Source of the DNA: an uncultured virus (IMG/VR IMGVR_UViG_3300012347_000477)
Taxonomy: Duplodnaviria; Heunggongvirae; Uroviricota; Caudoviricetes
Length of the DNA stretch: 20,000 nt
Virus record (IMG/VR): IMGVR_UViG_3300012347_000477
Span: 53,742-73,741 of that record
Strand: one strand, 5' to 3'
The notes beneath the pieces are model-generated. The model searched no databases, was not told the DNA's origin, and saw only the letters and a program-made list of their open reading frames with translations. A program made the position numbers and the translations under genes. How positions within the stretch are numbered: the first letter of the stretch is position 1; each line of letters begins with the position of its first letter. Below are positions 563 to 18,858 of the stretch, piece by piece.

Positions 563-572
563 TTAACATTTT

Positions 573-580
573 GATAAATA
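573..580 (+). promoter_or_regulatory. T4-like late promoter box (GATAAATA)
   Basis: Intergenic ATAAATA upstream of ORF 594. Confidence 0.6.
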
Positions 581-593
581 TAGTATACTTTAA

Positions 594-1082
594 ATGGAAC
601 ATACTATGACCTTAAACCCTGACATTTATACAATTGGCGATATCTTTAGTATAAGCTTGAATGAAGATTTCGAAATTAATACAACTATCATTGATATTGT
701 TGATGATGGAATAGTAATTGCGCTCGACGGTCCAGCAATGTCGTATTTAATCAGTGAAAGTTGGTCGTTTACTCCTTGCACGCATATTGTCGAGTCAAGT
801 AACAGTCGAAAAGGGTATACTTCTAGCAGTGTGCAACTCGACGAAGCCATGTACAAAGGGCGCAAAGTGCAGCTCGGAAAACCAATGGCAGGCGATGTTA
901 AAAAGTCTAAGGTATATGTTAAGAACGACAAAGGCAATGTCGTAAAGGTAAATTTCGGCGATAAAAAAATGCGCATTAAGAAGTCAATTCCTGCTCGAAG
1001 AAAATCATTCCGAGCAAGACATAATTGCGCAAATCCTGGACCTAGATGGAAAGCCCGATATTGGTCATGCCGAGCTTGGTAA
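594..1082 (+). CDS. hypothetical protein with acidic N-half and basic C-terminal domain (candidate internal head protein)
   Basis: The C-terminal domain after LDE|A is K/R-rich (VKVNFGD...RRKSFRARHNC...ARYWSC), a type I recognise from large phages. The start may be ATG 606 (GGA upstream). Confidence 0.75.
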   Translation: MEHTMTLNPDIYTIGDIFSISLNEDFEINTTIIDIVDDGIVIALDGPAMSYLISESWSFTPCTHIVESSNSRKGYTSSSVQLDEAMYKGRKVQLGKPMAGDVKKSKVYVKNDKGNVVKVNFGDKKMRIKKSIPARRKSFRARHNCANPGPRWKARYWSCRAW

Positions 1083-1088
1083 AATAAT

Positions 1089-1679
1089 ATGAATAGTACA
1101 CAACCACTTGCATCATTTAGCGTTCTAGGATCAGCTAGAGAAGAAGATCAAAACATCGATTGGGGTGATGATTTAAAATTTTTCATCGATAATACTGACG
1201 CATTACTGCATCGATTTGTCTTTCCGGCAACTCGCAAACATAAAGAGCGATTAGACGACGAAGATGCTTATAAAATTTACATCCGACCTGTTACACGCAG
1301 TATTTCGATTTACTGCGGACGATTTGACATCGACGATCCGGAAATTAAGTTTCCTCCTGAAGTTATCGAAGGAGTAGCTAGAAGAATTGCAGATGAACAA
1401 AAAGCATATATAGAAAGAGGCGATTACGAAAGTAAAAGAAAATTAGCTACTTTTGAAAGTATGAGCGAATCTATTGTTAACTTAGTATTGAAAGAAGACA
1501 CACAAATGGGAAATACCACATTAGGTAGTGCAAAGCCACGAAATTTTGTAGCAAAAAATGCAAAAATGAGTGGAGCTGGAGCACATACTGATAAGAAAAA
1601 AGCACAAAAGCAAGGTAACTTAAAACATAAGAAACCAGTAGTTGAATCATACTTTTCATTTATGAAGTACAAAGCATGA
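1089..1679 (+). CDS. hypothetical protein (acidic N-domain plus basic C-terminal KPRNFVAK...GAGAHTDKKK segment)
   Basis: 196-aa ORF; ATGA overlap with the next gene. Confidence 0.75.
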   Translation: MNSTQPLASFSVLGSAREEDQNIDWGDDLKFFIDNTDALLHRFVFPATRKHKERLDDEDAYKIYIRPVTRSISIYCGRFDIDDPEIKFPPEVIEGVARRIADEQKAYIERGDYESKRKLATFESMSESIVNLVLKEDTQMGNTTLGSAKPRNFVAKNAKMSGAGAHTDKKKAQKQGNLKHKKPVVESYFSFMKYKA

Positions 1680-1891
1680 AGCAATTTTATATTACTAGTG
1701 AAAACATTTCAGCAATTACTGCAGACCCTACTGATTGTTACTTATCGCCAACTGACCCAGTTCACGAATTAAAAATTGCACAATACATGGGCGGACTAGG
1801 TAGTACTGCAAAGCTTGAAGAGTATCGAATAAAAACTACCATTGATACGATTAAACGGATTCAGCATTCTACAAAATTGGATAATAAATAA
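1676..1891 (+). CDS. hypothetical protein
   Basis: 71-aa ORF translationally coupled by ATGA overlap. Confidence 0.65.
   Translation: MKQFYITSENISAITADPTDCYLSPTDPVHELKIAQYMGGLGSTAKLEEYRIKTTIDTIKRIQHSTKLDNK
1883..1890 (+). promoter_or_regulatory. T4-like late promoter box (AATAAATA)
   Basis: ATAAATA 5 nt before ATG 1896. Confidence 0.55.
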
Positions 1892-1895
1892 TACT

Positions 1896-2156
1896 ATGAA
1901 ACTTAGAGAATTATTTAGCGAAGATGCAACAGCTGGATCAACATCTGCAGGAGCAATTGCATCAGTTGTCAATCCAAACATTGCTATCGGAAACGACAGG
2001 CGGAATAAAAGCTATACAGGTAGTCCTGGTAAATCGGGCACTAAAGCACCGAAAGTACCAACTGTAACTCAACCAAAAAACAAAAACGGAACTGCTAAAA
2101 ACGCATTAGACATAAAAGGTACTAGTCTGTTTGGTGGTTCTACTTTAAAAAGATAA
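1896..2156 (+). CDS. small Gly/Ala/Lys-rich late protein (candidate internal head protein)
   Basis: Start re-called to ATG 1896 (MKLRELFSE|DATAGSTSAGAIA), which removes the overlap with the upstream gene and follows the late box. Confidence 0.75.
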   Translation: MKLRELFSEDATAGSTSAGAIASVVNPNIAIGNDRRNKSYTGSPGKSGTKAPKVPTVTQPKNKNGTAKNALDIKGTSLFGGSTLKR

Positions 2157-2159
2157 ATA
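2152..2159 (+). promoter_or_regulatory. T4-like late promoter box (GATAAATA)
   Basis: Overlaps the upstream stop codon; 4 nt before ATG 2164. Confidence 0.6.
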
Positions 2160-2163
2160 TATC

Positions 2164-2472
2164 ATGGACTTAATGAAACCCCCAGTAGATGATCATGAAG
2201 CAAAGATGGCAAAGGCTGATTTATACAAATTAGCCGAATATTCTATTAAGCTTTTTAAAATGATTGAAGATGACGACGAACTGCAAGGTTGGGTACAAGC
2301 AAAAATTACTAAGGCTTCCGACTATATTTCGAGTGTGTATCATTATTTAGAATACGAGCAGCTTGCTAGTACTAAAATTGAAAGTGGGCCGCGTACATAC
2401 GAAGAACAGGTTCAATCTAATGTATCAGCTGCTCTTACCGAGCAATGGAACCAACAAAAACAAGGAAACTAA
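2164..2472 (+). CDS. hypothetical phage protein (helical WVQAKITKASDY domain)
   Basis: 102-aa ORF with a late box upstream. Confidence 0.75.
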   Translation: MDLMKPPVDDHEAKMAKADLYKLAEYSIKLFKMIEDDDELQGWVQAKITKASDYISSVYHYLEYEQLASTKIESGPRTYEEQVQSNVSAALTEQWNQQKQGN

Positions 2473-2473
2473 C

Positions 2474-3229
2474 ATGGATTTTAAATCACTTATCCAAAAA
2501 ATCGAAAGTCTTGATGACGCTATTGTAACTCCACAGGCGCCGACTTTACCTAAATCAGTACAATTATCAGAAGGTGCACAACTTCGTGTTCTTGCTGGGC
2601 AAACTACTATTCTTGCAGAAGCTAAGACAGCAAAACAAGCTGCCGCTAAAAAAGAAGTTGCTAAAAAAGAAGTTGCTAAAAAAGAAGTTGCTAAAAAAGC
2701 AGTTGCTAAAAAAGAAGCCAACGAAAAAGCTAAAGACAAGCCAGTAGGTAAAAAATCTACAACAACCGAAGCATACGCAGTTGACTCGTTTACTTCTAGA
2801 TTTATGCAAATGGTAGAAGCTAGAAAAACTAAAAAGAAAAAACCAGATGCTGACGGTGACGGAGTACCTGATTGGGCAGACTCCGACAGTAACTCTTCTT
2901 CTAAGAAAAAATCTACTGCTAAGAAAAAATCAACAGGCCCTGCTAAAAAACAGCTAACTCCTAAACAAGAGAAATTCTTTGGTAAGAAAAAGACTGTTAA
3001 AGAAAGCTACGAACCAAAATTAACATTTAGAGATATGGTTAGATTTGTTCAAGAAAGTGGCGGACAACAACAAATTGATCCAGTTGATCAAGAACTATGG
3101 CAATGGGCACAGCGTGTTGCTGTACAAAAATTTGTCGAAGGTGCTAAAGCAGAAATGTATGCAGGTCTTGTATACGAACGCATGGGCGGTGTATTCGAAA
3201 TGTATGATGTGTTGTCAGAGTCAAATTAA
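2474..3229 (+). CDS. Lys/Ala-rich protein with histone-H1-like repeats and a DxDxDG motif (candidate internal head/DNA-condensing protein)
   Basis: Start re-called to ATG 2474 (SD AAGGA at 2462-2466); five AKKEV-type repeats, poly-Lys tracts, DADGDGVPD. Confidence 0.75.
   Translation: MDFKSLIQKIESLDDAIVTPQAPTLPKSVQLSEGAQLRVLAGQTTILAEAKTAKQAAAKKEVAKKEVAKKEVAKKAVAKKEANEKAKDKPVGKKSTTTEAYAVDSFTSRFMQMVEARKTKKKKPDADGDGVPDWADSDSNSSSKKKSTAKKKSTGPAKKQLTPKQEKFFGKKKTVKESYEPKLTFRDMVRFVQESGGQQQIDPVDQELWQWAQRVAVQKFVEGAKAEMYAGLVYERMGGVFEMYDVLSESN
2645..2719 (+). repeat. in-frame 15-bp tandem repeat, 5 copies (GCTAAAAAAGAAGTT)
   Basis: Three exact and two near-exact copies encoding AKKEV/AKKEV/AKKEV/AKKAV/AKKEA. 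Confidence 0.95.
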
Positions 3230-3269
3230 TTATTAAGAACAAATAATTAATATTACTTTGCAGTATACT

Positions 3270-3297
3270 AGCCAGTTTCAATTGACTGGCTTTTTTT
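3270..3297 (+). terminator. Rho-independent terminator
   Basis: AGCCAGT-ttcaattg-ACTGGCT followed by a T-run. Confidence 0.85.
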
Positions 3298-3310
3298 ATG
3301 ACTGTATAAT
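3282..3310 (+). promoter_or_regulatory. sigma70-type early promoter
   Basis: TTGACT-N17-TATAAT; SD AAGGAG before ATG 3332. Confidence 0.85.
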
Positions 3311-3331
3311 ATAGTTTTACAAGGAGTTTTT

Positions 3332-3598
3332 ATGACAAAGATGTATGGCCCAGAAGAACGTGCAAAGTTAGAACGATTAATTAATGAAGGATCTAACGTC
3401 CTTCGTGAAATTGAAGATTTACGAGTGGGCTTAAAAGAGACCATTAATGCAGTAGCAGAAGAATTAGAAGTTAAACCAAGTATTATTAAAAAAGCAATTA
3501 CTATTGCTCATAAAGATAACTGGAAATCACATGAAGACGAGTGGAATGAAGTAGAAATGATTCTCGGAGTAACAAAAAACTTACCTGATGCCGATTAA
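3332..3598 (+). CDS. T4 DsbA-like (GapR-related) dsDNA-binding protein
   Basis: 88-aa helical protein; EELEVKPSIIKKAITIAHKDN...EDEWNEVE aligns by eye with the C-half of T4 DsbA; located in the replication module. Confidence 0.65.
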   Translation: MTKMYGPEERAKLERLINEGSNVLREIEDLRVGLKETINAVAEELEVKPSIIKKAITIAHKDNWKSHEDEWNEVEMILGVTKNLPDAD

Positions 3599-3604
3599 CT
3601 TATT

Positions 3605-3781
3605 ATGGATAAAGAAATATTATTGGCAATTTTATTAAATTATTATGAATACATCAAACACGGAGATGCCGAGCATCAAGCGTGGTTATACAATGCTACC
3701 TTAGAATTCCATAAAAAAATTGATCTAACACAATATAATTTAAATTCAAGTATTAACACGCATGTTGATAAACTTGTATAA
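3605..3781 (+). CDS. small hypothetical protein (58 aa, below the ORF-track cutoff)
   Basis: Manual translation MDKEILLAILLNYYEYIKHGDAEHQAWLYNATLEFHKK...VDKLV*; fills the gap between the dsbA-like gene and pol. Confidence 0.55.
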   Translation: MDKEILLAILLNYYEYIKHGDAEHQAWLYNATLEFHKKIDLTQYNLNSSINTHVDKLV

Positions 3782-3782
3782 T
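3753..3782 (+). promoter_or_regulatory. possible sigma70 promoter for DNA polymerase
   Basis: TTAACA-N18-TATAAT. Confidence 0.45.
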
Positions 3783-3792
3783 TAAGTATAGT

Positions 3793-3866
3793 AATTGCAT
3801 TGCGTAATACAGAAACACACAATGCAATTTTTGATGGTATGTGTAAGCCGTAAGTTGCACGAAGGA
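3793..3866 (+). promoter_or_regulatory. structured 5' leader of polymerase gene (hairpin plus putative H-type pseudoknot abutting SD)
   Basis: AATTGCATTG/CAATGCAATT stem (3793-3829); ATGGT/GCCGT and GTGTAA/TTGCAC pairings (3834-3860); SD GAAGGA at 3861-3866. Confidence 0.5.
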
Positions 3867-3873
3867 AAAATCA

Positions 3874-6540
3874 ATGAGTTATGTAGACGCGTTTTATGAT
3901 AAATCTCAAGACATTATTAATGTCGTTGAACGAGATAGCAAAGGTATTAGGCACTTTAAAGAATACCAAGCACGCCATGTGTTTTATTACAAAGACCCAA
4001 AGGGTAAATTTCTATCAATGAAAGGAGAGCCGTTAAGTCGAGTTACTAGTAAAAATTTAAAAGAGCATCGTAAAGAAACATCTCTTTATTCTGGTAAACG
4101 ATTATTCGAAAGTGACATAAATCCAATTTATAGATGTTTAGAAGACAACTATCTCAATGCTGATGCACCTAAGTTAAATGTAGCATTTTTCGACATTGAG
4201 GTAGATTTTGATCCTGAAAGAGGATATGCTGCCCCAGACGATGCGTTTATGCCAATTACTGCTATTGCGATTCAATTACAATGGCTAGACACATTAGTAT
4301 GCTTAGCTATCCCTCCAAAAACGTTATCAATGGCAGAAGCAACTCGACAAGTTGAAGATTTTCCAAATACAATGTTATTTGATAATGAAGCAGATATGCT
4401 TGATACATTTTTAGATCTTATTCAAGATGCAGATGTTATTAGTGGATGGAACAGTGAGGGTTTTGATATTCCGTATACTGTTAATCGAGTAACTAAAGTA
4501 TTAAGCAAGGAAGATACTAGACGATTTTGCTTATGGGATCAATATCCGAAACGTCGTGAGTATGAAAAATACGGCAAGGCTGCTGTAACTTACGACCTTG
4601 TTGGTCGAGTCCATTTAGATAGTCTTGAATTATATCGCAAGTATACATACGAAGAACGACACACATACCGATTAGATGCAATCGGCGAGATGGAAGTCGG
4701 CGAAACTAAAACTGTGTATGAAGGAACTTTAGATCAACTGTATAACAATGATTTTAAAAAGTTTATTGAATATAACAGACAAGATACTGCGTTGTTAGAT
4801 AAAATGGATAAGAAGTTAAAATTCTTAGATTTAGCTAATTCGATTGCTCATGAAAATACAGTATTACTACAAACAACAATGGGTGCAGTAGCAGTAACTG
4901 AACAAGCAATTATTAACGAAGCACATCGTCGAGGCATGATTGTGCCGAATCGTATTAGTAGAGAACCAGGATCCGAACCAGCAGCAGGTGCATATGTTGC
5001 ATATCCGAAAAAAGGCATTCATGAATGGATCGGATCGCTTGACATTAACTCATTGTACCCGTCTGCGATTCGTGCATTAAACATGGGGCCAGAGACAATT
5101 ATTGGGCAACTTCGTCAGGATGGTACTAAAGCATTTATCGAAGCTGAAATGGCTCGAGGTCGTAGCTTTGCTGGAGCATGGGAAGGCATGTTTGGTAGCT
5201 TAGAATATGAAGCTGTCATGAAGCGCGAAGTAGGTAGGGAAGTTATTATCGACTGGGAAAATGGCGGAAGTGACACTTTATCAGCAGCACAAACACACGA
5301 TTTAATTTTTGAGTCTAATCAGCCATGGATGATTTCTGCTAATGGCACTATTTTTACTTATGAAATCGAAGGAATTATTCCAGGATTATTAAAAAGATGG
5401 TATGCCGAGCGGCAAGAAATGCAGGCTAAAAAGACAGAAGCAGCCAATGCCGGTAATAAAATTGAAGAAGAATATTGGGATAAACGACAGTTAGTTAAGA
5501 AAATTAACTTAAACAGTTTATACGGTGCTATTCTAAATCCGGGCTGTAGGTTTTTTGATAACAGAATTGGTCAAAGTACTACCCTCACAGGCAGACAAAT
5601 TGCAAAATATATGGCCGCTAAAGTTAATGAGATTATTACCGGCGAAAATGATCATACTGGTAAAGCAATTATTTACGGTGACACTGACTCATGTTATTTC
5701 TCTGCATATACAACTCTTAAAAAGGATATCGACAAGGGTCTTATTCCGTGGACTAAAGAATCAGTTATCGAATTGTATGATACTATTGGCAGCTCAGTTA
5801 ATGATACTTTTCCTAAATTTATGATGGAGGCATTTCATTGTCCAAAATCAAGAGGTAGTGTTATTGTTGCTGGTCGAGAAATTGTTGCAATTAAAGGACT
5901 GTTCATCACTAAGAAACGGTATGCTGTGTTGTATTACGATAAAGACGGAAAACGATCTGATGTAGGTGGCAAACCTGGAAAAATTAAAGCAATGGGATTA
6001 GATTTAAAACGATCAGATACCCCAGTTGTTATTCAAGATTTTTTAAGCGAAGTATTAACACAGGTACTTAACGGTGCGCAAAAAGAAGAAGTGTTATCGT
6101 ATATTGCAAATTTTAGAACAGAGTTTCAAACTCGACCAGGTTGGGAGAAAGGCTCACCTAAACGTGCAAATAACATAACTGCGTATCAGACCAAGGAAAA
6201 GACCCAAGGCAAAGCAAACATGCCCGGGCATGTACGAGCCAGCTTAAATTGGAATACTTTAAAACGTATGTACAATGATAAGTACTCTATGAATATTACT
6301 GATGGCGGTAAAGTTATTGTATGCAAATTAAAAGAAAACCCAATTGGGTTTACTAGTGTTGCATATCCAGTAGACGAGCTTCGATTACCTCAATGGTTTA
6401 AAGATTTGCCGTTTGCTGATGGAGAGATGGAAACAGCAGTGATCGACGAAAAGCTATCAAACTTAATTGGTGTATTAGATTGGGATCTAACATCAACACG
6501 GAACGATACTACGTTCGCTAGTTTGTTCGATATCGAATAA
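3874..6540 (+). CDS. polB: family B DNA polymerase (T4 gp43-like)
   Basis: Exo I FFDIE, Exo II GWNSEGFDIPY, Exo III YNRQD, motif A DINSLYPS, motif B KKINLNSLYG, motif C YGDTDS, KKRY; C-terminal FASLF clamp-binding-like tail. Confidence 0.97.
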   Translation: MSYVDAFYDKSQDIINVVERDSKGIRHFKEYQARHVFYYKDPKGKFLSMKGEPLSRVTSKNLKEHRKETSLYSGKRLFESDINPIYRCLEDNYLNADAPKLNVAFFDIEVDFDPERGYAAPDDAFMPITAIAIQLQWLDTLVCLAIPPKTLSMAEATRQVEDFPNTMLFDNEADMLDTFLDLIQDADVISGWNSEGFDIPYTVNRVTKVLSKEDTRRFCLWDQYPKRREYEKYGKAAVTYDLVGRVHLDSLELYRKYTYEERHTYRLDAIGEMEVGETKTVYEGTLDQLYNNDFKKFIEYNRQDTALLDKMDKKLKFLDLANSIAHENTVLLQTTMGAVAVTEQAIINEAHRRGMIVPNRISREPGSEPAAGAYVAYPKKGIHEWIGSLDINSLYPSAIRALNMGPETIIGQLRQDGTKAFIEAEMARGRSFAGAWEGMFGSLEYEAVMKREVGREVIIDWENGGSDTLSAAQTHDLIFESNQPWMISANGTIFTYEIEGIIPGLLKRWYAERQEMQAKKTEAANAGNKIEEEYWDKRQLVKKINLNSLYGAILNPGCRFFDNRIGQSTTLTGRQIAKYMAAKVNEIITGENDHTGKAIIYGDTDSCYFSAYTTLKKDIDKGLIPWTKESVIELYDTIGSSVNDTFPKFMMEAFHCPKSRGSVIVAGREIVAIKGLFITKKRYAVLYYDKDGKRSDVGGKPGKIKAMGLDLKRSDTPVVIQDFLSEVLTQVLNGAQKEEVLSYIANFRTEFQTRPGWEKGSPKRANNITAYQTKEKTQGKANMPGHVRASLNWNTLKRMYNDKYSMNITDGGKVIVCKLKENPIGFTSVAYPVDELRLPQWFKDLPFADGEMETAVIDEKLSNLIGVLDWDLTSTRNDTTFASLFDIE

Positions 6541-6549
6541 AATTAAATG

Positions 6550-6585
6550 AAAATGATAGATAGACTATTGACTTTCTATCATTTT
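6550..6585 (+). terminator. 11-bp inverted repeat (terminator or operator) enclosing the -35 box
   Basis: AAAATGATAGA (6550-6560) pairs with TCTATCATTTT (6575-6585). Confidence 0.55.
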
Positions 6586-6596
6586 ATTAGTATAAT
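6568..6596 (+). promoter_or_regulatory. sigma70-type early promoter
   Basis: TTGACT-N17-TATAAT; SD AAGGA before ATG 6623. Confidence 0.85.
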
Positions 6597-6622: not shown

Positions 6623-7360
6623 ATGAAAAATATTTTACAAGACGTTGTTAGCCACACACAAAACTTGGGTTTTTTAACAATTGTTAAAGTTACAGGCACA
6701 GCTGAAAAAACAGTAATCAATTCAATGGCAGACGATCGTTCTGTTATTATGGATGCTGAAACTAAAGCACCGTATCCAGAAATGATCGGTGTATTTGGTA
6801 TGCCCCAACTTAATAAGCTTAAATTCTTATTAGAAGGTAACGAGTATAAAGAAGATGCAAAGATTTCAATTGTATCTGCTGTACGTAACGACGAAACTAT
6901 TCCAGTTGGCATTCATTTTGAAAATAAACACGGAGACTTTAAAAACGACTATCGCTTTATGAACACCGAAATCATTAATGAAAAAATGAAAACATTAAAG
7001 TTTCGAGGTGTAAGATGGGACGTCGAAGTTGAGCCAACAGTTGCTGCCGTACAGCGATTTAACTTTCAAGCAGGTGCAAATAGTGAGCACCCTACGTTTT
7101 TAGCTAAAACAGACGGTGATAAATTAAAATTCATTTTTGGCGATGTTAGCACTCACGGCGGCGAATTTATTTTTGCAACAGATGTCACTGGCAAGCTTGA
7201 TAAAGGATGGACATGGCCTGTTAGCTCTATTTTAGCAATTCTTAAAATTGCAGATGTCAATAACACTAAGATGTCGTTAAGCAACGAAGGCGCCATCAAG
7301 ATCACCCTCGATAGCGGTATTGCTACTTACAATTACATTATTCCAGCTCAAGCAAACTAA
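6623..7360 (+). CDS. probable DNA polymerase sliding clamp (gp45/PCNA-like)
   Basis: 245 aa, directly after pol; two-domain alpha/beta pattern ending in clamp-like strands (GAIKITLDSGIATYNYIIPA). Inferred from size, context and pattern. Confidence 0.6.
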   Translation: MKNILQDVVSHTQNLGFLTIVKVTGTAEKTVINSMADDRSVIMDAETKAPYPEMIGVFGMPQLNKLKFLLEGNEYKEDAKISIVSAVRNDETIPVGIHFENKHGDFKNDYRFMNTEIINEKMKTLKFRGVRWDVEVEPTVAAVQRFNFQAGANSEHPTFLAKTDGDKLKFIFGDVSTHGGEFIFATDVTGKLDKGWTWPVSSILAILKIADVNNTKMSLSNEGAIKITLDSGIATYNYIIPAQAN

Positions 7361-7364
7361 TACA

Positions 7365-7706
7365 ATGAATCAGTTTTTATATACATCTCGATATAATCCC
7401 AATCTCTATTCGTCGTCTAACAATCCAGCGATCGGGCAAGTACAGTTTGTAAATAACATGTTATGCGTGTATGATGGTTACAACTGGCAATCTATGCCTC
7501 AGTTTATAACTGAAGTTCACATGTCGTCAACGGCCGACGATGCTATCAACTGGGCATACAAAAAAATGCTCGAAGAGCAACAACTTGCCGAACTTGCTAA
7601 ATCAAATCACGCAGTACATAATGCATTGTTAGCACTAAACGATGCCAAGTCAAAATTAAATGTTATAGTAGCATTATCAAAGGATACTAATGAAGTCGTC
7701 AGTTAA
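7365..7706 (+). CDS. hypothetical protein
   Basis: Start re-called to ATG 7365, just after the clamp stop; short beta region (VYDGYNW) plus a C-terminal helix. Confidence 0.65.
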   Translation: MNQFLYTSRYNPNLYSSSNNPAIGQVQFVNNMLCVYDGYNWQSMPQFITEVHMSSTADDAINWAYKKMLEEQQLAELAKSNHAVHNALLALNDAKSKLNVIVALSKDTNEVVS

Positions 7707-9232
7707 TTTATCTCCGCTACAACGGGATTATGCCGTATACCTTCCGGCTATCAGCTCTTTTTATAGCACATATATTGCAAAGCAGAGGCTAGAAGAATTT
7801 ATTCCTAAAGATAGAATTCCTGCAGGGTTTGATCGAGGGGTTGAAGGTATGAACTTCTTAAATCCAGAAGAAGGATATTTTACATATAAATACGGCCTGT
7901 ATTCTGCAGGTCACGCTCANNNNNNNNNNACTTGATTTACAAAAGAGCATGGTCCAAGAAAGCATGATTCAGCAGAGAGATCGTGGTAATACAATGATTC
8001 TCGGCGATTCAGGTGGTTATCAAATTGGTAAAGGTGTTCTTAAATTTGATTGGCTTAATTTCGAAGGCCCTGCTGCTAATAAAACTCGTCAAAGTATCTT
8101 AGAATGGTTAGAATTGACTGCTGATTGGTCAATGATGTTAGACGTTCCTACATGGGCATGCGATCATATCCATAGCCCTAAAACCGGGTTAAAAACGTTT
8201 GACGACTGCCTCGATAAGACAAGATTTAATAATGATTACTTTTTATCTAATCGTCTTGGCCAAACAAAATGGCTTAATGTGTTGCAAGGTAGCGATTGGG
8301 ACACTGCTGAAAAGTGGTATCAAGGTGTAAAGGAATTTAGTGATCCAAAAGGCAAATACGCAGGCCGCGAAGCCGAAGGATGGGCAATGGGTGGTGCAAA
8401 TATGTGTAAAATGCCAATTGCATTACGTAGGTTAATTACACTTAAATTTGACGGCTTACTCGAAGGCAAAGATTGGATGCATTTCTTGGGTACTGCACAG
8501 TTAGATTGGAGTTGTTATCTTACACTGATTCAACGACAAGTTCGCAAAACAATCAATCCGAATTTTACAATTAGCTTTGATTGTGCTAGCCCGTTTATTG
8601 CAACTGCACACGGATTAGTATATACTAATGCACAACACACTAATAAGCGGTGGAGTGTTATTATGGACAAGGCTCCTGATAACAAAGCATTAGCAAAAAG
8701 CGATATTCCGTTTCCGTTTGAAAGCGAATTTGGTCGCAGACTTACTATGGGAGACATTTGTCATTATGCCCCGGGCATGTTAAATAAAATTAACAAAGAA
8801 GGAAAAACTTCTTGGGATAGCTTTGCATATGCATTAATGATGGGTCATAACGTGTACTGTCATATTGTTGCAGTACAACGTGCAAATCACTTAATGGATA
8901 TCGAAACTGCAAAACATAAGCCAGACTGGAGACGCTGGACTAAACCTGGCAGCAAAGAAGTAAACATGCATGAATATAGCGATTGGGTTCCTCGCAATAT
9001 TTTGTACTTCAACACATTTGTAGAAGAATTATTTGCATGCGGCACTAAAGACGAAGCATTTCAAATGATTAAAGACGGCGAATTTTTCTTAAAAAATCTC
9101 GAAGGTGCAAGACTTCGAGGCGGCATTACTAATGAGTTTAATCGTTTATTTGTCGAAGACAATGACGAGTCATGGGATAATGACCGAGAAGATACTGCAT
9201 TAGATAATTTAGAATCTCAATTTAAAGATTAA
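7690..9232 (+). CDS. dpdA: TGT-fold guanine transglycosylase, DpdA-like (7-deazaguanine insertion); single gene of about 510 aa interrupted by an assembly gap
   Basis: TGT motifs in order: GDSGGYQ, MMLD, VLQG, AMGG, HFLG, SFDC, HNV. Removing the 10 Ns joins the two ORFs in frame (…SAGHAQLDLQKSMVQES…). Clustered with folE, queE and a queD-like gene. Confidence 0.8.
7920..7929. other. assembly gap (10 N)
   Basis: Run of 10 N that causes an artificial frameshift. Confidence 0.99.
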
Positions 9233-9236
9233 AAAA

Positions 9237-9260
9237 TAAAGCCGAGGGTACTCGGCTTTA
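9237..9260 (+). terminator. hairpin terminator (possibly bidirectional)
   Basis: TAAAGCCGAG-ggta-CTCGGCTTTA, a perfect 10-bp stem with an A-run upstream. Confidence 0.85.
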
Positions 9261-9261
9261 G

Positions 9262-9290
9262 TTGACATGCTACATTATTTGTGTTATAAT
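9262..9290 (+). promoter_or_regulatory. consensus sigma70 promoter with extended -10
   Basis: TTGACA-N17-TATAAT with TG at 9282-9283. Confidence 0.9.
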
Positions 9291-9317: not shown

Positions 9318-9857
9318 ATGAAAAGACAATACGCATCTGGTACAACAACAAATGTTACAATTTTTGTAGGTGTTGAAGTTGAAAAAACTCCAGCATACAA
9401 AATGAAAACATTGTTTGTTGTTGGCTTGCATGATCACACAGACTTAGTACAATATGTTGCATCTGCAGACGATCATGTAGAGCATATTTACTTCGGAGCA
9501 AATCAAAGCTTTAATAGTGAAATTAGTGATTCTGATTTATTAAAATGGAGTAATATGATTACTCCGTGGCTCGAAAGCGGAATTTGGTGTACATTAGACT
9601 TTGATGTAACATTAGTAGAAAAAGTAATGGCAACTAGCCTTTGCAAATATCGAAATTTTATTCCTCAAATCTCAGTTAAATTACCTAAATTGCAAAATTT
9701 AGGGTATAATGCAACACTTAAAATAGACGATACTGGATTTGCAGAATCTAACCCAGGTGTATGGTGTCATCAATTAAACGAGTTACTTGTAAGAGACAAA
9801 TTTACATCTTGGGATCAATACGGCACCGATTTAATTATTAAACAGGAATTAAAATGA
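9318..9857 (+). CDS. hypothetical alpha/beta protein within the deazaguanine cluster
   Basis: 179 aa; motif-like segments GVEVEKTP, HIYFGANQSF, KIDDTGFAESNPGVWC, WDQY; function not recognised. Confidence 0.8.
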   Translation: MKRQYASGTTTNVTIFVGVEVEKTPAYKMKTLFVVGLHDHTDLVQYVASADDHVEHIYFGANQSFNSEISDSDLLKWSNMITPWLESGIWCTLDFDVTLVEKVMATSLCKYRNFIPQISVKLPKLQNLGYNATLKIDDTGFAESNPGVWCHQLNELLVRDKFTSWDQYGTDLIIKQELK

Positions 9858-10054
9858 AAGAATTTACAGTAAAAGAAAATGATGCATTTAGAGTACGTGT
9901 TAAAAAATACGCCTGCGCATCGCCCTCCGACTTGTATGCAATTGATGTAATTAAAGAAGAGTTACACAGTGGTACCGTAACACTTAGTACTACTAATCGA
10001 TTACTTATGACTGAACAAGAAATTAAAACATTAGCTCAAGGATTATTAGCGTGA
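9854..10054 (+). CDS. hypothetical protein
   Basis: 66 aa; SD AGGA; ATGA/GTGA overlaps on both sides. Confidence 0.7.
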   Translation: MKEFTVKENDAFRVRVKKYACASPSDLYAIDVIKEELHSGTVTLSTTNRLLMTEQEIKTLAQGLLA

Positions 10055-10428
10055 ATATCCCCGTAGATCTCCGCCCAAGTGTAAAGACTTTTATTAAAGT
10101 TCGAACTGAATTTGAAGGCTTCCATCACTACCCTAACGCTGGAAAAATTGATCCTCGTATCGAGTTTCTTGAACATGAGCATCGACACATGTTTAAAGTT
10201 GAAGTGACTATTTCAGTTACACATACTGATAGAGAATTAGAATTTTTCTTAGTCAAATGGGCATTAAATGACTTTATTAAATCAGGAAATCAAAATCACA
10301 AATCCTGTGAAATGATTGCAACTGATATTTTAAACGATCATTTGTTACCAAAATACGGTCAGAGATACTATACAATTACAGTGTCAGAAGATGGCGAATC
10401 AGATGGCATTGTTGAGTACAAACCGTAA
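10051..10428 (+). CDS. QueD-like (6-pyruvoyl-tetrahydropterin synthase family, T-fold) protein, DpdL-type
   Basis: FEGFH...LEHEHRHMF...KSCEMIA...VSEDGE parallels the QueD pattern FxAAH...HGH...PTAE...VxET, but has LxxxHRHxF in place of CxxxHGH. Confidence 0.7.
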   Translation: MNIPVDLRPSVKTFIKVRTEFEGFHHYPNAGKIDPRIEFLEHEHRHMFKVEVTISVTHTDRELEFFLVKWALNDFIKSGNQNHKSCEMIATDILNDHLLPKYGQRYYTITVSEDGESDGIVEYKP

Positions 10429-10842: not shown

Positions 10843-11934
10843 ATGAAATCAACAGTATGGATTTTTTCAATTGAGCCTTTAGAGACTCGCTACACAAAAC
10901 AGTGGCAAGATCATGTTCCGAAGTTATTAGTCGACAAGCTAGGGCACAATTTTAATGTTGTACAGATTGACGGCGAACAGAAAAATACTGCACCAACACC
11001 TGGTGCATTTTTAAATTTTTCAGATACTAACTACTGGAAAAGCTCACAATTGTGTAAGTTTTTAGAACATCACAATAACGGTGAAACTTCAAAAAACGAT
11101 CATTTTATTTTTACAGATGCATGGAATCCAACAGTGATACAACTGCGATACATGTCCGACTTGTTAGGGTTTAATTGGGTATTGCATGGACTATTTCATG
11201 CAGGCAGCTGGGATTCTGCAGATTTTTTAGGTAGAATTGTTGGTGATAAACCATGGGTTAAAAATGCTGAAAAAGCATTATTTCATTCGTTCGATCATAA
11301 TTATTTTGCCACTAAGTTTCACATCGACATGTTTGTATCTAACTTACTTAATGCAAATTACACCACTAAAGTTACGTATTTAAATTCAAAAAAAATAATC
11401 CCAACAGGTTGGCCAATGGAGTACATGGTCGACACATTGGCACCGTATAAGGGGCTAAAGAAACGAAATCTTATTTTATTCCCACATCGTATTGCTCCAG
11501 AAAAACAACTTAATATTTTTCTAGATTTAAAACAACAATTGCCGCAATACGAGTTTATTGTATGCCAAGATAAAAACTTGTCTAAGCATGAATATCATAC
11601 GTTACTAGGAGAATCTAAGATTATCTTTAGTGCAAATTTACAAGAAACTCTTGGTATTTCTTCATGTGCCGAAGGCCCACTAGTTGAATCGTTACCGCTA
11701 GTTCCAAATAGGTTAAGCTATAAAGAAATATTTAGTAACTATCCAGAATTTATGTATCCGTCCGAATGGACTACTGATTGGCTTAGTTATGTGCCGCATC
11801 GTGCTACGCTAGCCAATAAAGTTGTAAACATGATAGAAAATTACGATACGTTAGTTCCAAAAATTAATCACTATACAGATAATACGTATTTAGAATTTTT
11901 TACTGCTGATAATTTAATTGCAAATATCAAGTAA
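10843..11934 (+). CDS. GT-B fold glycosyltransferase (group 1/GT4-like)
   Basis: 363 aa; ILFPHRIAPEKQ (GRxxxxK equivalent), LQETLGISSCAE (ExFG...E-like nucleotide-sugar motif), PLVPNRLSYKE. Confidence 0.8.
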   Translation: MKSTVWIFSIEPLETRYTKQWQDHVPKLLVDKLGHNFNVVQIDGEQKNTAPTPGAFLNFSDTNYWKSSQLCKFLEHHNNGETSKNDHFIFTDAWNPTVIQLRYMSDLLGFNWVLHGLFHAGSWDSADFLGRIVGDKPWVKNAEKALFHSFDHNYFATKFHIDMFVSNLLNANYTTKVTYLNSKKIIPTGWPMEYMVDTLAPYKGLKKRNLILFPHRIAPEKQLNIFLDLKQQLPQYEFIVCQDKNLSKHEYHTLLGESKIIFSANLQETLGISSCAEGPLVESLPLVPNRLSYKEIFSNYPEFMYPSEWTTDWLSYVPHRATLANKVVNMIENYDTLVPKINHYTDNTYLEFFTADNLIANIK

Positions 11935-11975: not shown

Positions 11976-12035
11976 TATATGCTACACAGCGGTAGCACAC
12001 ATCAATCAAATACCATCACAAAGGAAGGTTATCTC

Positions 12036-12719
12036 ATGTCATTTAATAGAACAAAATGCGACCCAGAATTGGGCAAAAAAATTCACGAACACTTAGTTAA
12101 CTGCGGAGTCGAAACTCCTACAATTAGCAATAATCTTAGTCGTACAGAAAAAATTGATATTATCGAACAAAAGTTTGCCGATATTATGAATGCACTAGGT
12201 TTAGATTTAACTGATGATAGTTTAATCGAAACTCCAAAACGTGTTGCTAAAATGTATGTTGGCGAAATCTTTTGGGGGCTTGATTACGAAGCGTTTCCTA
12301 AATGTACCACAGTCGACAATAAAATGAAGTACGACGAAATGGTCATCGAGCGTAATGTTAATGTTCAATCAAACTGCGAGCATCATTTAGTAGTAATTGA
12401 CGGACTTGCAACAGTAGGTTACATTCCTAACAATAAAGTATTAGGCCTAAGCAAAATTAATAGGGTCGTTGAATATTTTAGCAAACGTCCGCAAATTCAA
12501 GAACGGTTAACAGAGCAGGTTTACCATGCATTGCAATACATTCTCGCTACTGATAATATTGCTGTAGTAATTGATGCCCAACACTTTTGTGTTAAGTCCA
12601 GGGGAGTCGAGGATACTGGTTCGAGTACAATCACTAGTAAATTAGGAGGCTGCTTTAAATCAGACTCGAGTGTGCGTAGCGAATTTATGAATATTGTAAA
12701 TTCTTCCAAAACAAAATAA
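12036..12719 (+). CDS. folE: GTP cyclohydrolase I
   Basis: ETPKRVAKMY, SNCEHH, GLSKINR, RPQIQERLT, HFCVKSRG. ATG 12036 has SD AAGGAAGG; an alternative in-frame ATG is at 11979. Confidence 0.97.
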   Translation: MSFNRTKCDPELGKKIHEHLVNCGVETPTISNNLSRTEKIDIIEQKFADIMNALGLDLTDDSLIETPKRVAKMYVGEIFWGLDYEAFPKCTTVDNKMKYDEMVIERNVNVQSNCEHHLVVIDGLATVGYIPNNKVLGLSKINRVVEYFSKRPQIQERLTEQVYHALQYILATDNIAVVIDAQHFCVKSRGVEDTGSSTITSKLGGCFKSDSSVRSEFMNIVNSSKTK

Positions 12720-12763: not shown

Positions 12764-12991
12764 ATGATTGATTCAAAAATAAAAATACATTGTACCGACA
12801 ACAACAAAGATCTCGATGCACACATTCTTAATTACAAACCACAGGCATTTTTAGAAGTTGCATTTCAAACATTAAAAATTAAGTTAGTATTCAAAGAAAC
12901 TGCTAAGATATTTGTTGGAAGCTTAGGCGGAAAAGAATTTGTTGTTAATGAATCGCAACTGCAAGTTAAGAATAAAGAATACAGACGATGA
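12764..12991 (+). CDS. hypothetical protein
   Basis: 75 aa; ATGA overlap with the next gene. Confidence 0.7.
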   Translation: MIDSKIKIHCTDNNKDLDAHILNYKPQAFLEVAFQTLKIKLVFKETAKIFVGSLGGKEFVVNESQLQVKNKEYRR

Positions 12992-13455
12992 AATCAAAAT
13001 TTAAAAATGCATATATGCAAACAGCTAAAATATTTGCCGATTTAAGCTATTCTCGAATTACGCAAGAGGGAGCAATTGTAGTAAAAGACGATAGGATTGT
13101 TAGCATAGGATTTAATGGCATGCCAGCAGGCTGGGATAACGATTGCGAAAATATTGTAGGCTACAAAACAGCTAATGAACCAGTTTACAAAACTAAACCA
13201 GAAGTATTAAATGCAACTATGAATGCATTAATGAAGCTAGCAAAAAGTAGTGACTCTGGTACAAATGCAGCAATTTTCGTTACACATGCTCCATGTTTAG
13301 ATTCAGCAAAGGGAATTTATCAAGCAGGAATTACCGAAGTATATTACGAAACAGAATTAGAAAATACCAGCGGTATTGATTTTTTAAAAAAATGTAAAAT
13401 TACAATCGAACGTATTGATAATACTACTACAATCCCGTATAATATAGCAATTTAA
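12988..13455 (+). CDS. dCMP deaminase homologue with degenerate active site
   Basis: GAIVVKDDRIVSIGFNGMPAG and THAPC...IYQAGITEVYY are dCMP-deaminase signatures, but HAE reads NAT and PCxxC reads PCLDS. Confidence 0.85.
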   Translation: MKSKFKNAYMQTAKIFADLSYSRITQEGAIVVKDDRIVSIGFNGMPAGWDNDCENIVGYKTANEPVYKTKPEVLNATMNALMKLAKSSDSGTNAAIFVTHAPCLDSAKGIYQAGITEVYYETELENTSGIDFLKKCKITIERIDNTTTIPYNIAI

Positions 13456-13463: not shown

Positions 13464-14324
13464 ATGTCAAAAATTAAAATAGCAGAACTATTCTATTCAA
13501 TTCAAGGCGAAGGGAAATACATGGGAGTTCCTAGTATTTTCTTACGTACATTTGGTTGCAATTTTTCTTGTAGCGGGTTTGGTATGCCACGGGGTCAAGC
13601 TAGTACAGAAGCTACTACAATTGCACAAACACATATCGGAATTAAACCATTTACCAAGTACGAAGACTTGCCACTAGTTAGCACTGGTTGTGACTCATTC
13701 GCCTCCTGGATGCCTGAATTCAAAGATCTTTCTCCGATGCTAACTTCAGATGCAATTGCTGAAAGAATTTTAGAACTATTGCCAAATAATGCATGGGGTG
13801 ATGCACATTTAGTTATTACTGGCGGAGAGCCTTTACTTGGCTGGCAACGAGCATATCCTGATTTATTAAATCATCCTAAGATGGCTAGCTTAAAAGAAAT
13901 TACATTTGAAACAAATGGTACTCAATCTTTATCTTCTGATTTTAAAAATTACCTAGGTGTATGGCAAGGGCTGCCGAGAAATAAACGAGAAATTACATTT
14001 AGTGTGAGTGCAAAACTCCCATGTAGTGGTGAATCGTGGGAAGACGCTATTAAGCCAAAAATCGTCTGCGAATATGAAGAAGTTGGCACAACATATTTAA
14101 AATTTGTCATTGCCACAGACGATGATTTTAAAGACGCTCAAAGGGCAATTAGAGAATATCGCGATGCTGGCTTTACTGGTCATGTATACTTAATGCCAGT
14201 CGGCGGAGTTGAAAGTGTATATTCATTAAATAATCAAAATGTTGCTAATTTAGCAATAAATGCTGGCTTACGATATAGTGATCGACTTCAGGTTCCTTTA
14301 TTTAAGAACGCCTGGGGTACATAA
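13464..14324 (+). CDS. queE: 7-carboxy-7-deazaguanine synthase (radical SAM)
   Basis: ELFYSIQGEG..GVPSIFLRTFGCN, GCDS, VITGGEPLL, ETNGT, LKFVI, YLMP, YSDRLQ. Confidence 0.92.
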   Translation: MSKIKIAELFYSIQGEGKYMGVPSIFLRTFGCNFSCSGFGMPRGQASTEATTIAQTHIGIKPFTKYEDLPLVSTGCDSFASWMPEFKDLSPMLTSDAIAERILELLPNNAWGDAHLVITGGEPLLGWQRAYPDLLNHPKMASLKEITFETNGTQSLSSDFKNYLGVWQGLPRNKREITFSVSAKLPCSGESWEDAIKPKIVCEYEEVGTTYLKFVIATDDDFKDAQRAIREYRDAGFTGHVYLMPVGGVESVYSLNNQNVANLAINAGLRYSDRLQVPLFKNAWGT

Positions 14325-14954: not shown

Positions 14955-15983
14955 ATGAAAATTTTAACAAAACATATGAATAACAATACATATATTATTG
15001 TCGATACTGCTAATACGTTTTTTAGAGCAAGACATGTAATTAACGGTGATGCAGATATTAAGTTAGGTATGGCCTTTCATATCACGCTAAATTCTATTAA
15101 AAAAGCATGGCAAGATTTTAATGGCACACATGTAGTATTTTGCTTAGAAGGTCGTAGTTGGAGGAAAGATCACTATGCTCCTTACAAGAGAAACCGATCC
15201 GAAACTCGTGCAGCACACACCGAAAAAGAAGCCGAAGAAGAAAAAGTATTTTGGGAAGCATTTGATACCTTTAAAGAGTTTGTAACTACAAAAACAAATT
15301 GTACCGTTATGCAACATCCTCAGTTAGAAGCTGATGATTTAATTGCCGGATGGATTCAAAATCATCCATTAGACAATCATATTATTATTTCGACAGATAC
15401 AGACTTTGTACAACTAATCGCCCCTAATGTTAAGCAATATAACGGAGTTTCAGAAGTTACTATTACCCACGAGGGATATTTTGATAAAAAAAATAAACCA
15501 GTAATTGATAACAAAACTAAAGAGATTAAGTTGCCTCCTAGACCTGAATGGTTGTTATTCGAAAAATGCATGCGCGGCGATTCAAGCGATAACGTGTTCA
15601 GTGCATACCCAGGTGTTCGTACTAAAGGTACTAGTAAAAAAGTCGGATTAACAGAAGCATTTGAAGATAGAAATTCTAAAGGTTTTAACTGGAATAATTT
15701 AATGCTACAGCGATGGACTGATCACGAAGGTGTCGAGCATCGTGTACGAGACGACTACGAACGAAATCGTCAATTAATCGACCTGACAGCGCAACCGGAA
15801 GAAATTAAAAAACACATTATCGACACCATAACAACAGCAACGGCTGCTGATAAAAATATTAATCAAGTAGGATTAAGATTAATGAAATTTTGCGGACTGT
15901 ACGATTTAAAGAAAATTGCAGAACAGGCACAAGCATATGCAGAACCATTGAATGCTCGATACAAATTAACAAGTGCAGAATAA
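14955..15983 (+). CDS. rnh: T4-type RNase H / 5'-3' flap exonuclease
   Basis: IIVDTAN, SWRKDHYAPYKRNR, EADDLIA, STDTDFVQL, GDSSDNV (FEN-family acidic motifs). The start may be ATG 14976. Confidence 0.92.
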   Translation: MKILTKHMNNNTYIIVDTANTFFRARHVINGDADIKLGMAFHITLNSIKKAWQDFNGTHVVFCLEGRSWRKDHYAPYKRNRSETRAAHTEKEAEEEKVFWEAFDTFKEFVTTKTNCTVMQHPQLEADDLIAGWIQNHPLDNHIIISTDTDFVQLIAPNVKQYNGVSEVTITHEGYFDKKNKPVIDNKTKEIKLPPRPEWLLFEKCMRGDSSDNVFSAYPGVRTKGTSKKVGLTEAFEDRNSKGFNWNNLMLQRWTDHEGVEHRVRDDYERNRQLIDLTAQPEEIKKHIIDTITTATAADKNINQVGLRLMKFCGLYDLKKIAEQAQAYAEPLNARYKLTSAE

Positions 15984-16461
15984 TATGACAGAAATATATG
16001 CTACTCCTATTATCGATAATAAATTCTGGGTTGTTGAACAAAATGGTGAAAAAGTCGGAACATTGAGAAAAGATGACGAGAATCGATTTGTACTAAGTAA
16101 CGAATTAGGAATTAAAGTATTTGCTAACGAGGCTAGCATTGCTGACCAATTTGGTAATAACTTTTTTGTTGCAAAAATTATTAAAGAAGCTAACTGTAGT
16201 TTAATTAATGAAGTACACGGATTTCCTACAAACGTTCTACCACATAATCCAATGTACGATATTAAGAGACGATTACCACTTTTTACTAAAAGCAACGAGT
16301 CTAAAAGTTTATATTGTGCAGGATATTATATTATTCAATTTGATAAAGGCTGGGTAAAGAGTTTTTGTCCTAAACTTATTACATTGCAAAGATATAAATA
16401 TCAAGGTCCGTACAATACAGAACACGAAATGAAGCAGGAACTTTTTAATGTCACAAAATAA
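15973..16461 (+). CDS. hypothetical phage protein
   Basis: 162-aa ORF (ATG 15985 is a likely start); aromatic-rich C-terminal domain AGYYIIQF...FCPKLITL. Confidence 0.8.
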   Translation: MQNNMTEIYATPIIDNKFWVVEQNGEKVGTLRKDDENRFVLSNELGIKVFANEASIADQFGNNFFVAKIIKEANCSLINEVHGFPTNVLPHNPMYDIKRRLPLFTKSNESKSLYCAGYYIIQFDKGWVKSFCPKLITLQRYKYQGPYNTEHEMKQELFNVTK

Positions 16462-18578: not shown

Positions 18579-18858
18579 ATTTCCAGATCAGTTAAAAAAC
18601 GAGTGGCCAGAGGTCTTTAAAGACCTCTCTACTGCGTATATGCCAACTGCATTTTTAGTTGCGTTGCGGCTAGAATTTAACAATGGTAGAATATGGGAAA
18701 TCGATGTCGCTGATTATTCAGATGAGTATCCGTCTATATCTGATCTATTACATAGATTGTTTACAGACTATCGATCTGAAATTAAAGATATCAGTGTCAA
18801 CATCAATTTTGATAAACTAAAGGATTATATCGTTAAATCGTGTAATATGATGCTATGA
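18532..18858 (+). CDS. hypothetical protein
   Basis: 108-aa ORF (the start could be GTG 18559); ATGA overlap with the next gene. Confidence 0.65.
   Translation: MSKTSKKLLVTKLLFKFPDQLKNEWPEVFKDLSTAYMPTAFLVALRLEFNNGRIWEIDVADYSDEYPSISDLLHRLFTDYRSEIKDISVNINFDKLKDYIVKSCNMML

Follow-up and report, generated by a model that had tools for sequence, protein, structure and literature searches.

It is an open question how phage transglycosylases replace many or all guanines in the course of a single infection cycle, and we interrogated a locus that bears on it. The locus lies in a 20,000-nucleotide stretch of DNA from an uncultured virus of the Caudoviricetes (positions 53,742 to 73,741 of IMG/VR record IMGVR_UViG_3300012347_000477; hereafter the window), which is part of a PA5oct-like jumbo phage fragment. 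The IMG/VR contig measures 73,741 bp and is about 21% complete according to CheckV, and relatives of the locus occur on IMG/VR contigs of up to 235 kb. Here a candidate DpdA3-type DNA-guanine transglycosylase, encoded downstream of a family B DNA polymerase and a sliding clamp, carries near its C-terminus a short peptide that resembles the end of the polymerase. The original prediction, made from the DNA letters, held that this shared FxxLF motif tethers the base-exchange enzyme to the clamp. We confirm the shared tail, and the clamp-tether interpretation is supported: the transglycosylase is likely a client of the phage clamp through its polymerase-like tail peptide and would modify fresh duplex. 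The docking is predicted by structure models, and the co-replicative action is inferred.

The transglycosylase carries a conserved, polymerase-like tail motif

The genes of the locus form a row on the plus strand, and the tail elements discussed below lie within two of them:

3874-6540, plus strand: family B DNA polymerase, 888 amino acids, with T4/RB69-like domain content
6514-6528, plus strand: FASLF motif at the polymerase C-terminus (translation ...TRNDTT-FASLF-DIE*), a presumed clamp-binding tail
6623-7360, plus strand: predicted sliding clamp, a PCNA/gp45-type two-domain protomer of 245 amino acids, identified by its modelled fold
7365-7706, plus strand: small open reading frame (ORF) of 113 amino acids packed between the clamp and enzyme genes, a candidate gene without an assigned role
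7690-9232, plus strand: candidate DNA-guanine transglycosylase of DpdA3 type with a tRNA-guanine transglycosylase (TGT) fold, about 510 amino acids, one gene
9128-9160, plus strand: tail motif ITNE-FNRLF-VED of the enzyme (residues 394-404 of a 427-residue piece of the protein), a candidate clamp-binding peptide
9173-9214, plus strand: second conserved tail element of the enzyme, WDNDREDTALDNLE, an acidic stretch followed by an amphipathic L-x-x-L-E helix

The polymerase is assigned by Pfam DNA_pol_B (2.8e-33) and DNA_pol_B_exo1 (1.3e-18) and by phrog_262 (1e-193). Translation reproduces both motifs letter for letter where they had been placed: the polymerase ends in NDTT-FASLF-DIE, with FASLF at 6514-6528, and the enzyme has FNRLF at 9137-9151 (C-terminus ...GGITNE-FNRLF-VEDNDESWDNDREDTALDNLESQFKD*), 26 residues from its C-terminus. 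In relatives the polymerase C-terminus is ..[DN]N[TN]F-x-x-LF-[DST]F[ED]*, with additional clade-specific variants. As a separate observation, the PA5oct polymerase gene is split by a homing-endonuclease gene (377-5603 of the fetched PA5oct locus, L081), and the polymerase match is likewise interrupted in two IMG/VR relatives, L027 and L032.

The enzyme tail had been described as acidic and probably disordered, and the structure model agrees. In the model of L001, a full-length relative at 84% identity, the catalytic barrel extends to about position 470 in a protein of about 510 residues, and beyond it lie a disordered Gly/Arg/Lys-rich linker, the LF peptide and an acidic tail. Residues 473-495, which hold the motif, form one long segment of low confidence (predicted local distance difference test, pLDDT, below 50) in an otherwise confident model.

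The motif was also expected to be conserved in homologues. Across 74 dereplicated relatives with 37-85% identity to the window protein, this held for the [LIM]-F core: F401 (numbering of the 427-residue piece) is invariant (74/74), position 400 is L in 57, I in 6 and M in 4 (67/74), and position 403, two past F401, is acidic in 58 (E 40, D 18). It did not hold for the first residue of the motif, F397, which is F in 36, V in 12, H in 7 and S in 7 of the 74, a variability that counts against the motif as first written. By these counts, the conserved unit is phi-x-x-[LIM]-F-acidic rather than a strict FxxLF. Further out, many of the 150 most similar 50%-identity representatives carry or end in F-x-x-L-F or x-x-L-F beside acidic residues. 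Other representatives in this set are without such a tail, most of which we take to be cellular or otherwise different forms. One distant representative, P0130, found no related loci in IMG/VR when used as a query.

The second tail element is present in most clades as a [DE]-rich stretch with LxxLE (for example DDREDGELDKLE, NPDDDELRALEE and INDEKLTELEQ in PA5oct) and is missing where the LF motif forms the very C-terminus. It is modelled as a helix at residues 497-507 of L001 and makes no confident clamp contact in the complex model described below.

Polymerase and enzyme tails covary between clades

We compared the two tails in 155 loci with both genes, which gave 110 distinct tail pairs in 12 clades (72% identity over the catalytic part). 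Representative pairs are:

polymerase DNNFNKLFDFE*, enzyme TNEFNRMFVEV
polymerase NNTFGSLFSFE*, enzyme QNTFGSLFEVE
polymerase GFVDDLFG*, enzyme SVNDLFDTDD
polymerase TSFDMLFG*, enzyme SHGMLFED
polymerase TTFDDLFDF*, enzyme VNNLFDFS* (motif at the very C-terminus)
PA5oct: polymerase ..AAHFDSLFGW*, enzyme ..NSFNSLFDVD..
Vibrio phage 2.275.O: polymerase ..NNTDLFDW*, enzyme ..NNNDLFGW*

Using the best BLOSUM score of an 8-mer between polymerase tail and enzyme tail, with one representative per clade (n=12), we found a mean of 22.25 within genomes versus 17.45 across genomes (permutation p = 0.002). The enzyme tail ranks its own polymerase first in 5 of the 12 representatives and poorly in 5 others, where 4 to 8 other polymerases score higher; the effect is thus real but not uniform. 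The residues common to both tails have identical codons in only 28 of 55 cases, which rules out gene conversion between the two tails and means that their likeness is kept at the protein level.

The motif is short, and chance resemblance without function has to be considered. In 21,906 amino acids of plus-strand ORFs on the contig, F-x-x-[LM]-F occurs 4 times versus 3.5 expected from composition; this chance-level frequency speaks against giving the motif weight by itself, although two of the four matches fall in the final 31 residues of polymerase and enzyme. The signal is one of position, conservation and covariation in the aligned sequences, not of bare occurrence. A chance origin is scarcely credible to us given that F401 is kept in all 74 relatives down to 37% identity within an otherwise poorly conserved disordered tail, that the motif is present in PA5oct and the Vibrio phage at 29-42% identity, and that the tails covary by clade.

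An intramolecular or regulatory role, for example an autoinhibitory fold-back of the peptide on the DNA-binding groove, would explain the likeness to the polymerase as convergence on a hydrophobic-acidic pattern. The long acidic tail after the motif could mimic DNA, and both the ordinary frequency of F-x-x-[LM]-F in the proteome and the variable first F would suit such convergence. Nevertheless, the single-chain model leaves residues 473-495 unstructured and not on the barrel, and the clade-wise covariation with the polymerase, which takes in flanking residues such as the DLF[DG]W* of the Vibrio phage, would not be expected. We regard a fold-back role as decidedly unlikely and keep to the view of the tail as a ligand that the enzyme shares with the polymerase.

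The ORF between them is predicted to be a sliding clamp

The clamp-client reading requires the 6623-7360 product to be a clamp. AlphaFold2, given 57 homologues (29-81% identity), yields a confident model (pLDDT 92.4; predicted template modelling score 0.89), and all top Foldseek matches are PCNA from yeast, human, archaea and African swine fever virus (E 2e-11 to 7e-10, template modelling (TM) score 0.62-0.70). By this modelled fold the ORF is a PCNA-type sliding clamp, in line with the identity that the original prediction had given it (Foldseek PCNA E 2e-11, TM 0.65-0.70). Sequence searches returned no Pfam or NCBIfam match and, in PHROGs, phrog_12062 alone (function unknown), and no solved clamp was among the PDB matches by sequence or profile. 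As sequence-only searches failed for both the clamp and the enzyme, their identification needed folds.

Two named phages encode homologues of the clamp, gp170 in PA5oct (36% identity, E 9e-50) and protein 465 in Vibrio phage 2.275.O (34% identity, E 2e-37), and in both the gene stands between those for the polymerase and the enzyme. Every fetched locus with enough flanking sequence, like these two phages, keeps the order polymerase, clamp, (small ORF), enzyme. Searched by nucleotide sequence, the module matched no named phage. We note separately that gp170 (L081 5684-6430) is annotated as 'structural protein (ESI-MS/MS)', that is, seen in virion preparations, and its identity as a clamp seems to be unannotated.

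The enzyme tail is predicted to dock in the clamp ligand pocket

The clamp trimer had been proposed for modelling with the tail peptides. We modelled three clamp copies together with enzyme tail residues 372-427, each with its own alignment, and the motif docks in the clamp pocket with interface (ipSAE) scores of 0.65, 0.65 and 0.56, versus 0.01 for the best of three controls. The runs share at least 60% of contacts. The clamp chains have a pLDDT of 90 and the tail one of 45-50, so the fold of the docked tail itself is uncertain. Tail residues 392-397 and 400-405 contact residues 38-42, 123-130, 199, 222-224 and 239-244 of one clamp protomer, with the lowest modelled errors at F397, L400 and F401. 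Residues 123-130 form the interdomain connecting loop, where pLDDT dips in the clamp model, and 239-244 the C-terminal strand; in the model, then, the site is the canonical pocket of PIP-box and gp45 ligands. The contacted clamp residues are more conserved than average (top-residue frequency 0.71 versus 0.59), and F127 is invariant.

Three points weigh against leaning on this result too heavily. The calibration of the ipSAE mark, which 116 of 157 solved complexes and 2 of 215 mismatched pairs reach, holds only roughly for a trimer folded with custom alignments; the complex score may partly mirror the model's memory of solved PCNA-PIP complexes; and the role of the polymerase tail as a clamp ligand is taken over by analogy from T4/RB69.

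Covariation shows that the two tails share a partner and not which partner it is. The peptide could instead bind another replisome hub that contacts the polymerase, such as the single-stranded DNA-binding protein, the helicase/primase or the clamp loader, so that recruitment would not run via the clamp. Such a hub would fit the homologue in Sinorhizobium phage Phosso, which adjoins primase and DnaB-like helicase genes and whose upstream protein does not resemble the clamp, as well as the second conserved acidic tail helix with its lack of a modelled clamp contact. We judge it unlikely on balance: the clamp gene lies directly between polymerase and enzyme in every fetched locus with enough flank, F397, L400 and F401 are modelled in the canonical interdomain-loop pocket at 0.65 against 0.01 for controls, and a T4/RB69 polymerase tail of the same type is a clamp ligand according to the accessible text of PMC6212786.

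The partner might also be the host beta clamp, in which case modification would be linked to replication or repair complexes of host type. Bacterial beta-clamp-binding pentapeptides have the consensus QL[SD]LF, which the tail peptide resembles, and x-x-[LI]-F stands at or close to the very C-terminus of many distant homologues (..DPDLFG*, ..VADLFG*, ..KSLFEF* and, in Phosso, ..VEGLF*). In Phosso, moreover, a DnaE-like gene is close by, and no phage clamp can be recognised beside the enzyme. For the window this explanation is nonetheless very improbable in our estimate, as the window and all close relatives encode a phage clamp next door, the motif tracks the tail of its own polymerase, and the model accommodates the motif in a PCNA-type pocket. 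We therefore return to the phage clamp as the probable partner of the tail.

The enzyme is a candidate DpdA3-type transglycosylase

The gene model of the enzyme required a correction. A run of ten N's at 7921-7930 breaks the frame and adds one base, and an 81-residue ORF (7690-7935) runs into it. Without the N's, the sequence across the gap is ...SAGHA-Q-LDLQKS..., the same as in relatives, and a single ORF of about 510-550 amino acids takes in both pieces in 80 of 80 related loci (the IMG/VR search matched 590 stretches, and the gene-structure check covers 80 related loci). Because junction and relatives agree, the gene at 7690-9232 looks intact and the gap looks like an artefact of the record. 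The enzyme ORF had been read from 7949: its end at 9232 stands, while the true start is 7690, so that the N-terminal 77 codons had been missed. As the enzyme starts at 7690, 7365-7706 is the only small ORF. A second exact run of ten N's lies upstream of the window (contig 52380-52389), and both runs are inside ORFs.

We modelled L001 using an alignment of 105 diverse homologues (the homologue pool holds 742 representatives at E <= 1e-3). The model is confident (pLDDT 92.5), and all its top Foldseek matches are tRNA-guanine transglycosylases (E 2e-7, probability 1.00). VIA-align superposes 288-312 residues on bacterial, archaeal and mouse TGT with Z of 17.5-18.8 and a root mean square deviation of 4.3-5.1 Å. 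A comparison of the 105-sequence profile with E. coli Tgt by hhalign (Prob 89%, E 2e-6) pairs GDSGGYQ with TDSGGFQ, MLDVPT with IFDECT, LNVLQG with GIIQG, and SFDCASP with MFDCVMP (enzyme/E. coli Tgt). D149 and D294 are invariant among the 105 sequences and D104 is nearly so; we take the aligned residues to be the Asp of DSGGFQ, the substrate-binding Asp and the nucleophile Asp of FDC. By its model, the enzyme has the TGT (beta/alpha)8 fold with the catalytic Asp motifs.

Compared with the tRNA-guanine transglycosylases of Zymomonas mobilis and Thermotoga maritima and the archaeosine TGT, the enzyme has the same fold and the DSGG.Q and FDC motifs. It differs in its low identity (about 15%), in being without CxCxxC, and in having an N-terminal region of about 90 extra amino acids, a helical C-terminal domain and the disordered tail.

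In tblastn searches against named phages, homologues were found in three groups only: Pseudomonas jumbo phages of the PA5oct group (41.8% identity, E 1e-103, with 99% of the query aligned), Phosso (28%) and Vibrio phage 2.275.O (29%). The PA5oct homologue, ORF 222985-224607, is QCG76197.1, which stands under DpdA3 in Data S1 of Hutinet et al., NAR 2023 (PMC10516641). The fold, the catalytic Asp motifs and this DpdA3-listed homologue bear out the assignment to the DpdA-like base-exchange family that had been made from the letters, and the enzyme is a candidate DpdA3-type DNA 7-deazaguanine transglycosylase. As an observation apart, the tails of distant homologues (Phosso L082 6779-8428; P0141, P0157, P0179, P0231 and others) resemble beta-clamp ligands.

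Set against this assignment are several results from the same proteins. Pfam TGT (PF01702) has no match in the window protein or the whole record, and a faint match in 1 of 91 relatives (E 0.0045) is below the cut-off. Searches of the enzyme against NCBIfam, PHROGs and PDB by sequence or profile (phmmer/hmmsearch) returned nothing, and none of 20 proteins (the window piece, L001 and 18 database relatives) matches the Dpd models of PADLOC. The zinc site of TGT enzymes has the motif CxCxxC...H, and there is no C-x-C-x-x-C in the enzyme translation. That the substrate would be DNA rather than RNA is suggested by the phage replication context. Finally, the resemblance to the short DpdA3 form is slight. 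CPT_0056 of phage CP220 (258 amino acids), which we presume from the accession offset alone to be the CP220 DpdA3, aligns weakly with the enzyme family in hhalign (Prob 22%, E about 1e-3; QG, HxLG and SxDxSxP aligned).

A hidden Markov model from the enzyme alignment likewise found nothing in the 50-100 kb region of CP220. Compared with CPT_0056, the window enzyme is twice as long (about 510 amino acids), tailed and only weakly similar. CPT_0056 ends in ..DFRTINGL*, without an LF tail; the tail is thus a trait of the long PA5oct-type form and not of all DpdA3.

Genes for 7-deazaguanine synthesis lie downstream

The DpdA3 subfamily is one of TGT superfamily enzymes encoded with FolE, QueE and DpdL, and in the window genes of these three types lie within 5 kb downstream of the enzyme, together with a conserved neighbour:

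10051-10428, plus strand: DpdL-like protein of 125 amino acids, a candidate 7-carboxy-7-deazaguanine decarboxylase
10843-11934, plus strand: conserved neighbour of 363 amino acids, homologue of PA5oct gp167 (43.7% identity, E 4e-85)
11979-12719, plus strand: GTP cyclohydrolase I (FolE; Pfam PF01227 5.9e-62, phrog_2197 8.7e-76), first step of 7-deazaguanine synthesis
13464-14324, plus strand: QueE-like radical SAM protein, 7-carboxy-7-deazaguanine synthase (phrog_2076 2.4e-48, weak Pfam Radical_SAM match)

The DpdL-like protein has 30% identity (E 1.7e-8) to PA5oct ORF L081 9451-9909, which holds gp166 (9535-9912). The gp166 protein is QCG76199.1, listed as DpdL in Data S1 of PMC10516641, where the PA5oct entries are FolE, QueD, QueE and DpdL, with no QueC. 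In PA5oct, QueE is six genes downstream of the enzyme homologue, and in Vibrio phage 2.275.O the homologue is flanked by QueF-like, YhhQ, QueC and FolE genes. By analogy with the PA5oct set of FolE, QueD, QueE and DpdL, 7-deazaguanine or its 7-carboxy precursor is the probable inserted base. Accessible parts of the literature report that PA5oct DNA is resistant to five restriction enzymes, with a pattern of resistance that suggests modification of guanine (PMC12191111), and that all guanines are replaced in the DpdA3-carrying phages CP220, phiST and immuto_2-6A (PMC10516641).

The 363-residue neighbour has no Pfam or PHROG match and may be part of the modification pathway. It has 131 related ORFs and adjoins the transglycosylase. 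Other genes in the window encode a dCMP deaminase (12988-13455), a FEN/RNase H-type 5'-3' exonuclease (14955-15983), a second radical SAM protein (18855-20000, running off the window) and a T4 DsbA-like regulator (3332-3598).

The clamp and enzyme genes plausibly form one transcription unit

The clamp, the small ORF and the enzyme had been proposed to form one unit between a promoter at 6568 and a terminator at 9237. The signals around them are:

6568-6596, plus strand: sigma-70-like promoter preceding the clamp gene, TTGACT-17-TATAAT, 11 of 12 consensus positions, a pattern match only
9237-9260, no strand assigned: G+C-rich hairpin with a 10-bp stem from a terminator scan, closing the clamp/small ORF/enzyme unit
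9262-9290: promoter directly after the hairpin, 12 of 12 consensus positions

The small ORF starts 4 nucleotides past the clamp stop and overlaps the enzyme start by 17 nucleotides. Because of this tight packing, a single transcription unit is plausible from the sequence, and the promoter-like site agrees with it. The downstream boundary fared less well, as the hairpin scored as a terminator on the minus strand only, with a weak T-run after the stem on the plus strand. The small ORF has no family match in Pfam, PHROGs or NCBIfam. It has 31 related ORFs in the fetched loci by BLASTP (28-36% identity among the matches listed) and is absent or replaced in other loci.

Relation to known clamp clients

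T4 clamp clients with LF-type tails are textbook knowledge. In the accessible text of PMC6212786, the gp43 tail, gp33 and a loop of T4 ligase (LDFLF) bind the same gp45 pocket. The T4/RB69 clients and the window enzyme have in common an L-F-core peptide in a disordered tail or loop, found on the polymerase and on other enzymes alike, and docking in a hydrophobic pocket on the outside of a PCNA-like trimer, which for the window enzyme is a modelled docking at the interdomain loop and the C-terminal strand. In contrast to T4/RB69, the client here is a base-exchange DNA-modification enzyme, sequence comparison does not link its clamp to any solved clamp, and 26 residues, which include a second conserved acidic helix, separate its motif from the C-terminus.

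A closer parallel is T4 alpha-glucosyltransferase, which binds gp45 (Sommer et al. 2004, cited in PMC13216743, where a pull-down confirms the binding). It too is a phage DNA-modification enzyme paired with a clamp, a pairing that is modelled in our case, and according to the accessible text it is proposed to act concomitantly with replication. It differs in transferring a sugar to 5-hydroxymethylcytosine, where the window enzyme would exchange a whole guanine, and in its fold; no defined clamp motif of the glucosyltransferase was seen in that text. A clamp-bound DNA-modification enzyme is therefore already known from T4, and a clamp motif on a 7-deazaguanine transglycosylase was not met in the literature searched: among the papers listed by full-text searches, none by its title or abstract ties DpdA or a deazaguanine transglycosylase to a sliding clamp or a clamp-binding motif, and the word 'clamp' is absent from the main text of PMC10516641.

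The contig (73.7 kb) was also scanned for other proteins with the motif, and nothing was convincing except the small ORF 1896-2156. Its product of 86 amino acids is encoded upstream of the polymerase, and its relatives (12 matches) keep ..NALDMK-x-[ST]-[LI]-F-G.. near the C-terminus; speculatively, this protein may be a further client of the clamp in the manner of T4 gp33. ORF 15985-16461, with the tail ..QELFNVTK*, was rejected as a further client, its tail not being kept in PA5oct gp158.

A model for clamp-tethered guanine exchange

In the mechanism that we propose, the polymerase and enzyme peptides would both insert hydrophobic residues in the pocket under the clamp interdomain connecting loop, in the docking mode of T4/RB69 gp43, T4 ligase and PIP-box proteins. 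The clamp, left on the duplex behind the fork or shared in 'tool-belt' style, would keep the enzyme on newly made DNA, where it would exchange guanine for a 7-deazaguanine base on the freshly replicated duplex, behind or beside the polymerase, with the base made by FolE, QueD, QueE and DpdL.

Tethering could also contribute to high substitution levels, as had been suggested for this locus. A point that weighs against this extension comes from the T4 alpha-glucosyltransferase work, where, in its accessible text, promoter strength and not the binding to gp45 mainly sets the modification share (PMC13216743); clamp binding not being the main determinant there, tethering need not set substitution levels here. 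The fullest version of the idea would make the DpdA3-type enzyme of PA5oct-like jumbo phages a true part of a replisome 'tool belt', with a co-evolving LF peptide and a tether that allows very high or complete substitution. We put this forward tentatively, as a possibility that we rather doubt.

If the proposed mechanism is true, 7-deazaguanine insertion in the PA5oct-like lineage would be co-replicative and not simply post-replicative, whereas the accessible text of PMC10516641 treats it as a post-replication event. The clamp-docking peptide would offer a concrete mechanism for replacing many or all guanines within one infection cycle, in which the clamp delivers the enzyme to new DNA, and the set of sliding-clamp clients would be extended to a base-exchange enzyme. 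The lineage is abundant in the environment (2,831 database relatives of the clamp and the 590 IMG/VR enzyme stretches), and the co-evolution of polymerase and enzyme tails may provide a way to find clamp clients, and with them the clamp interactome, of uncultured jumbo phages.

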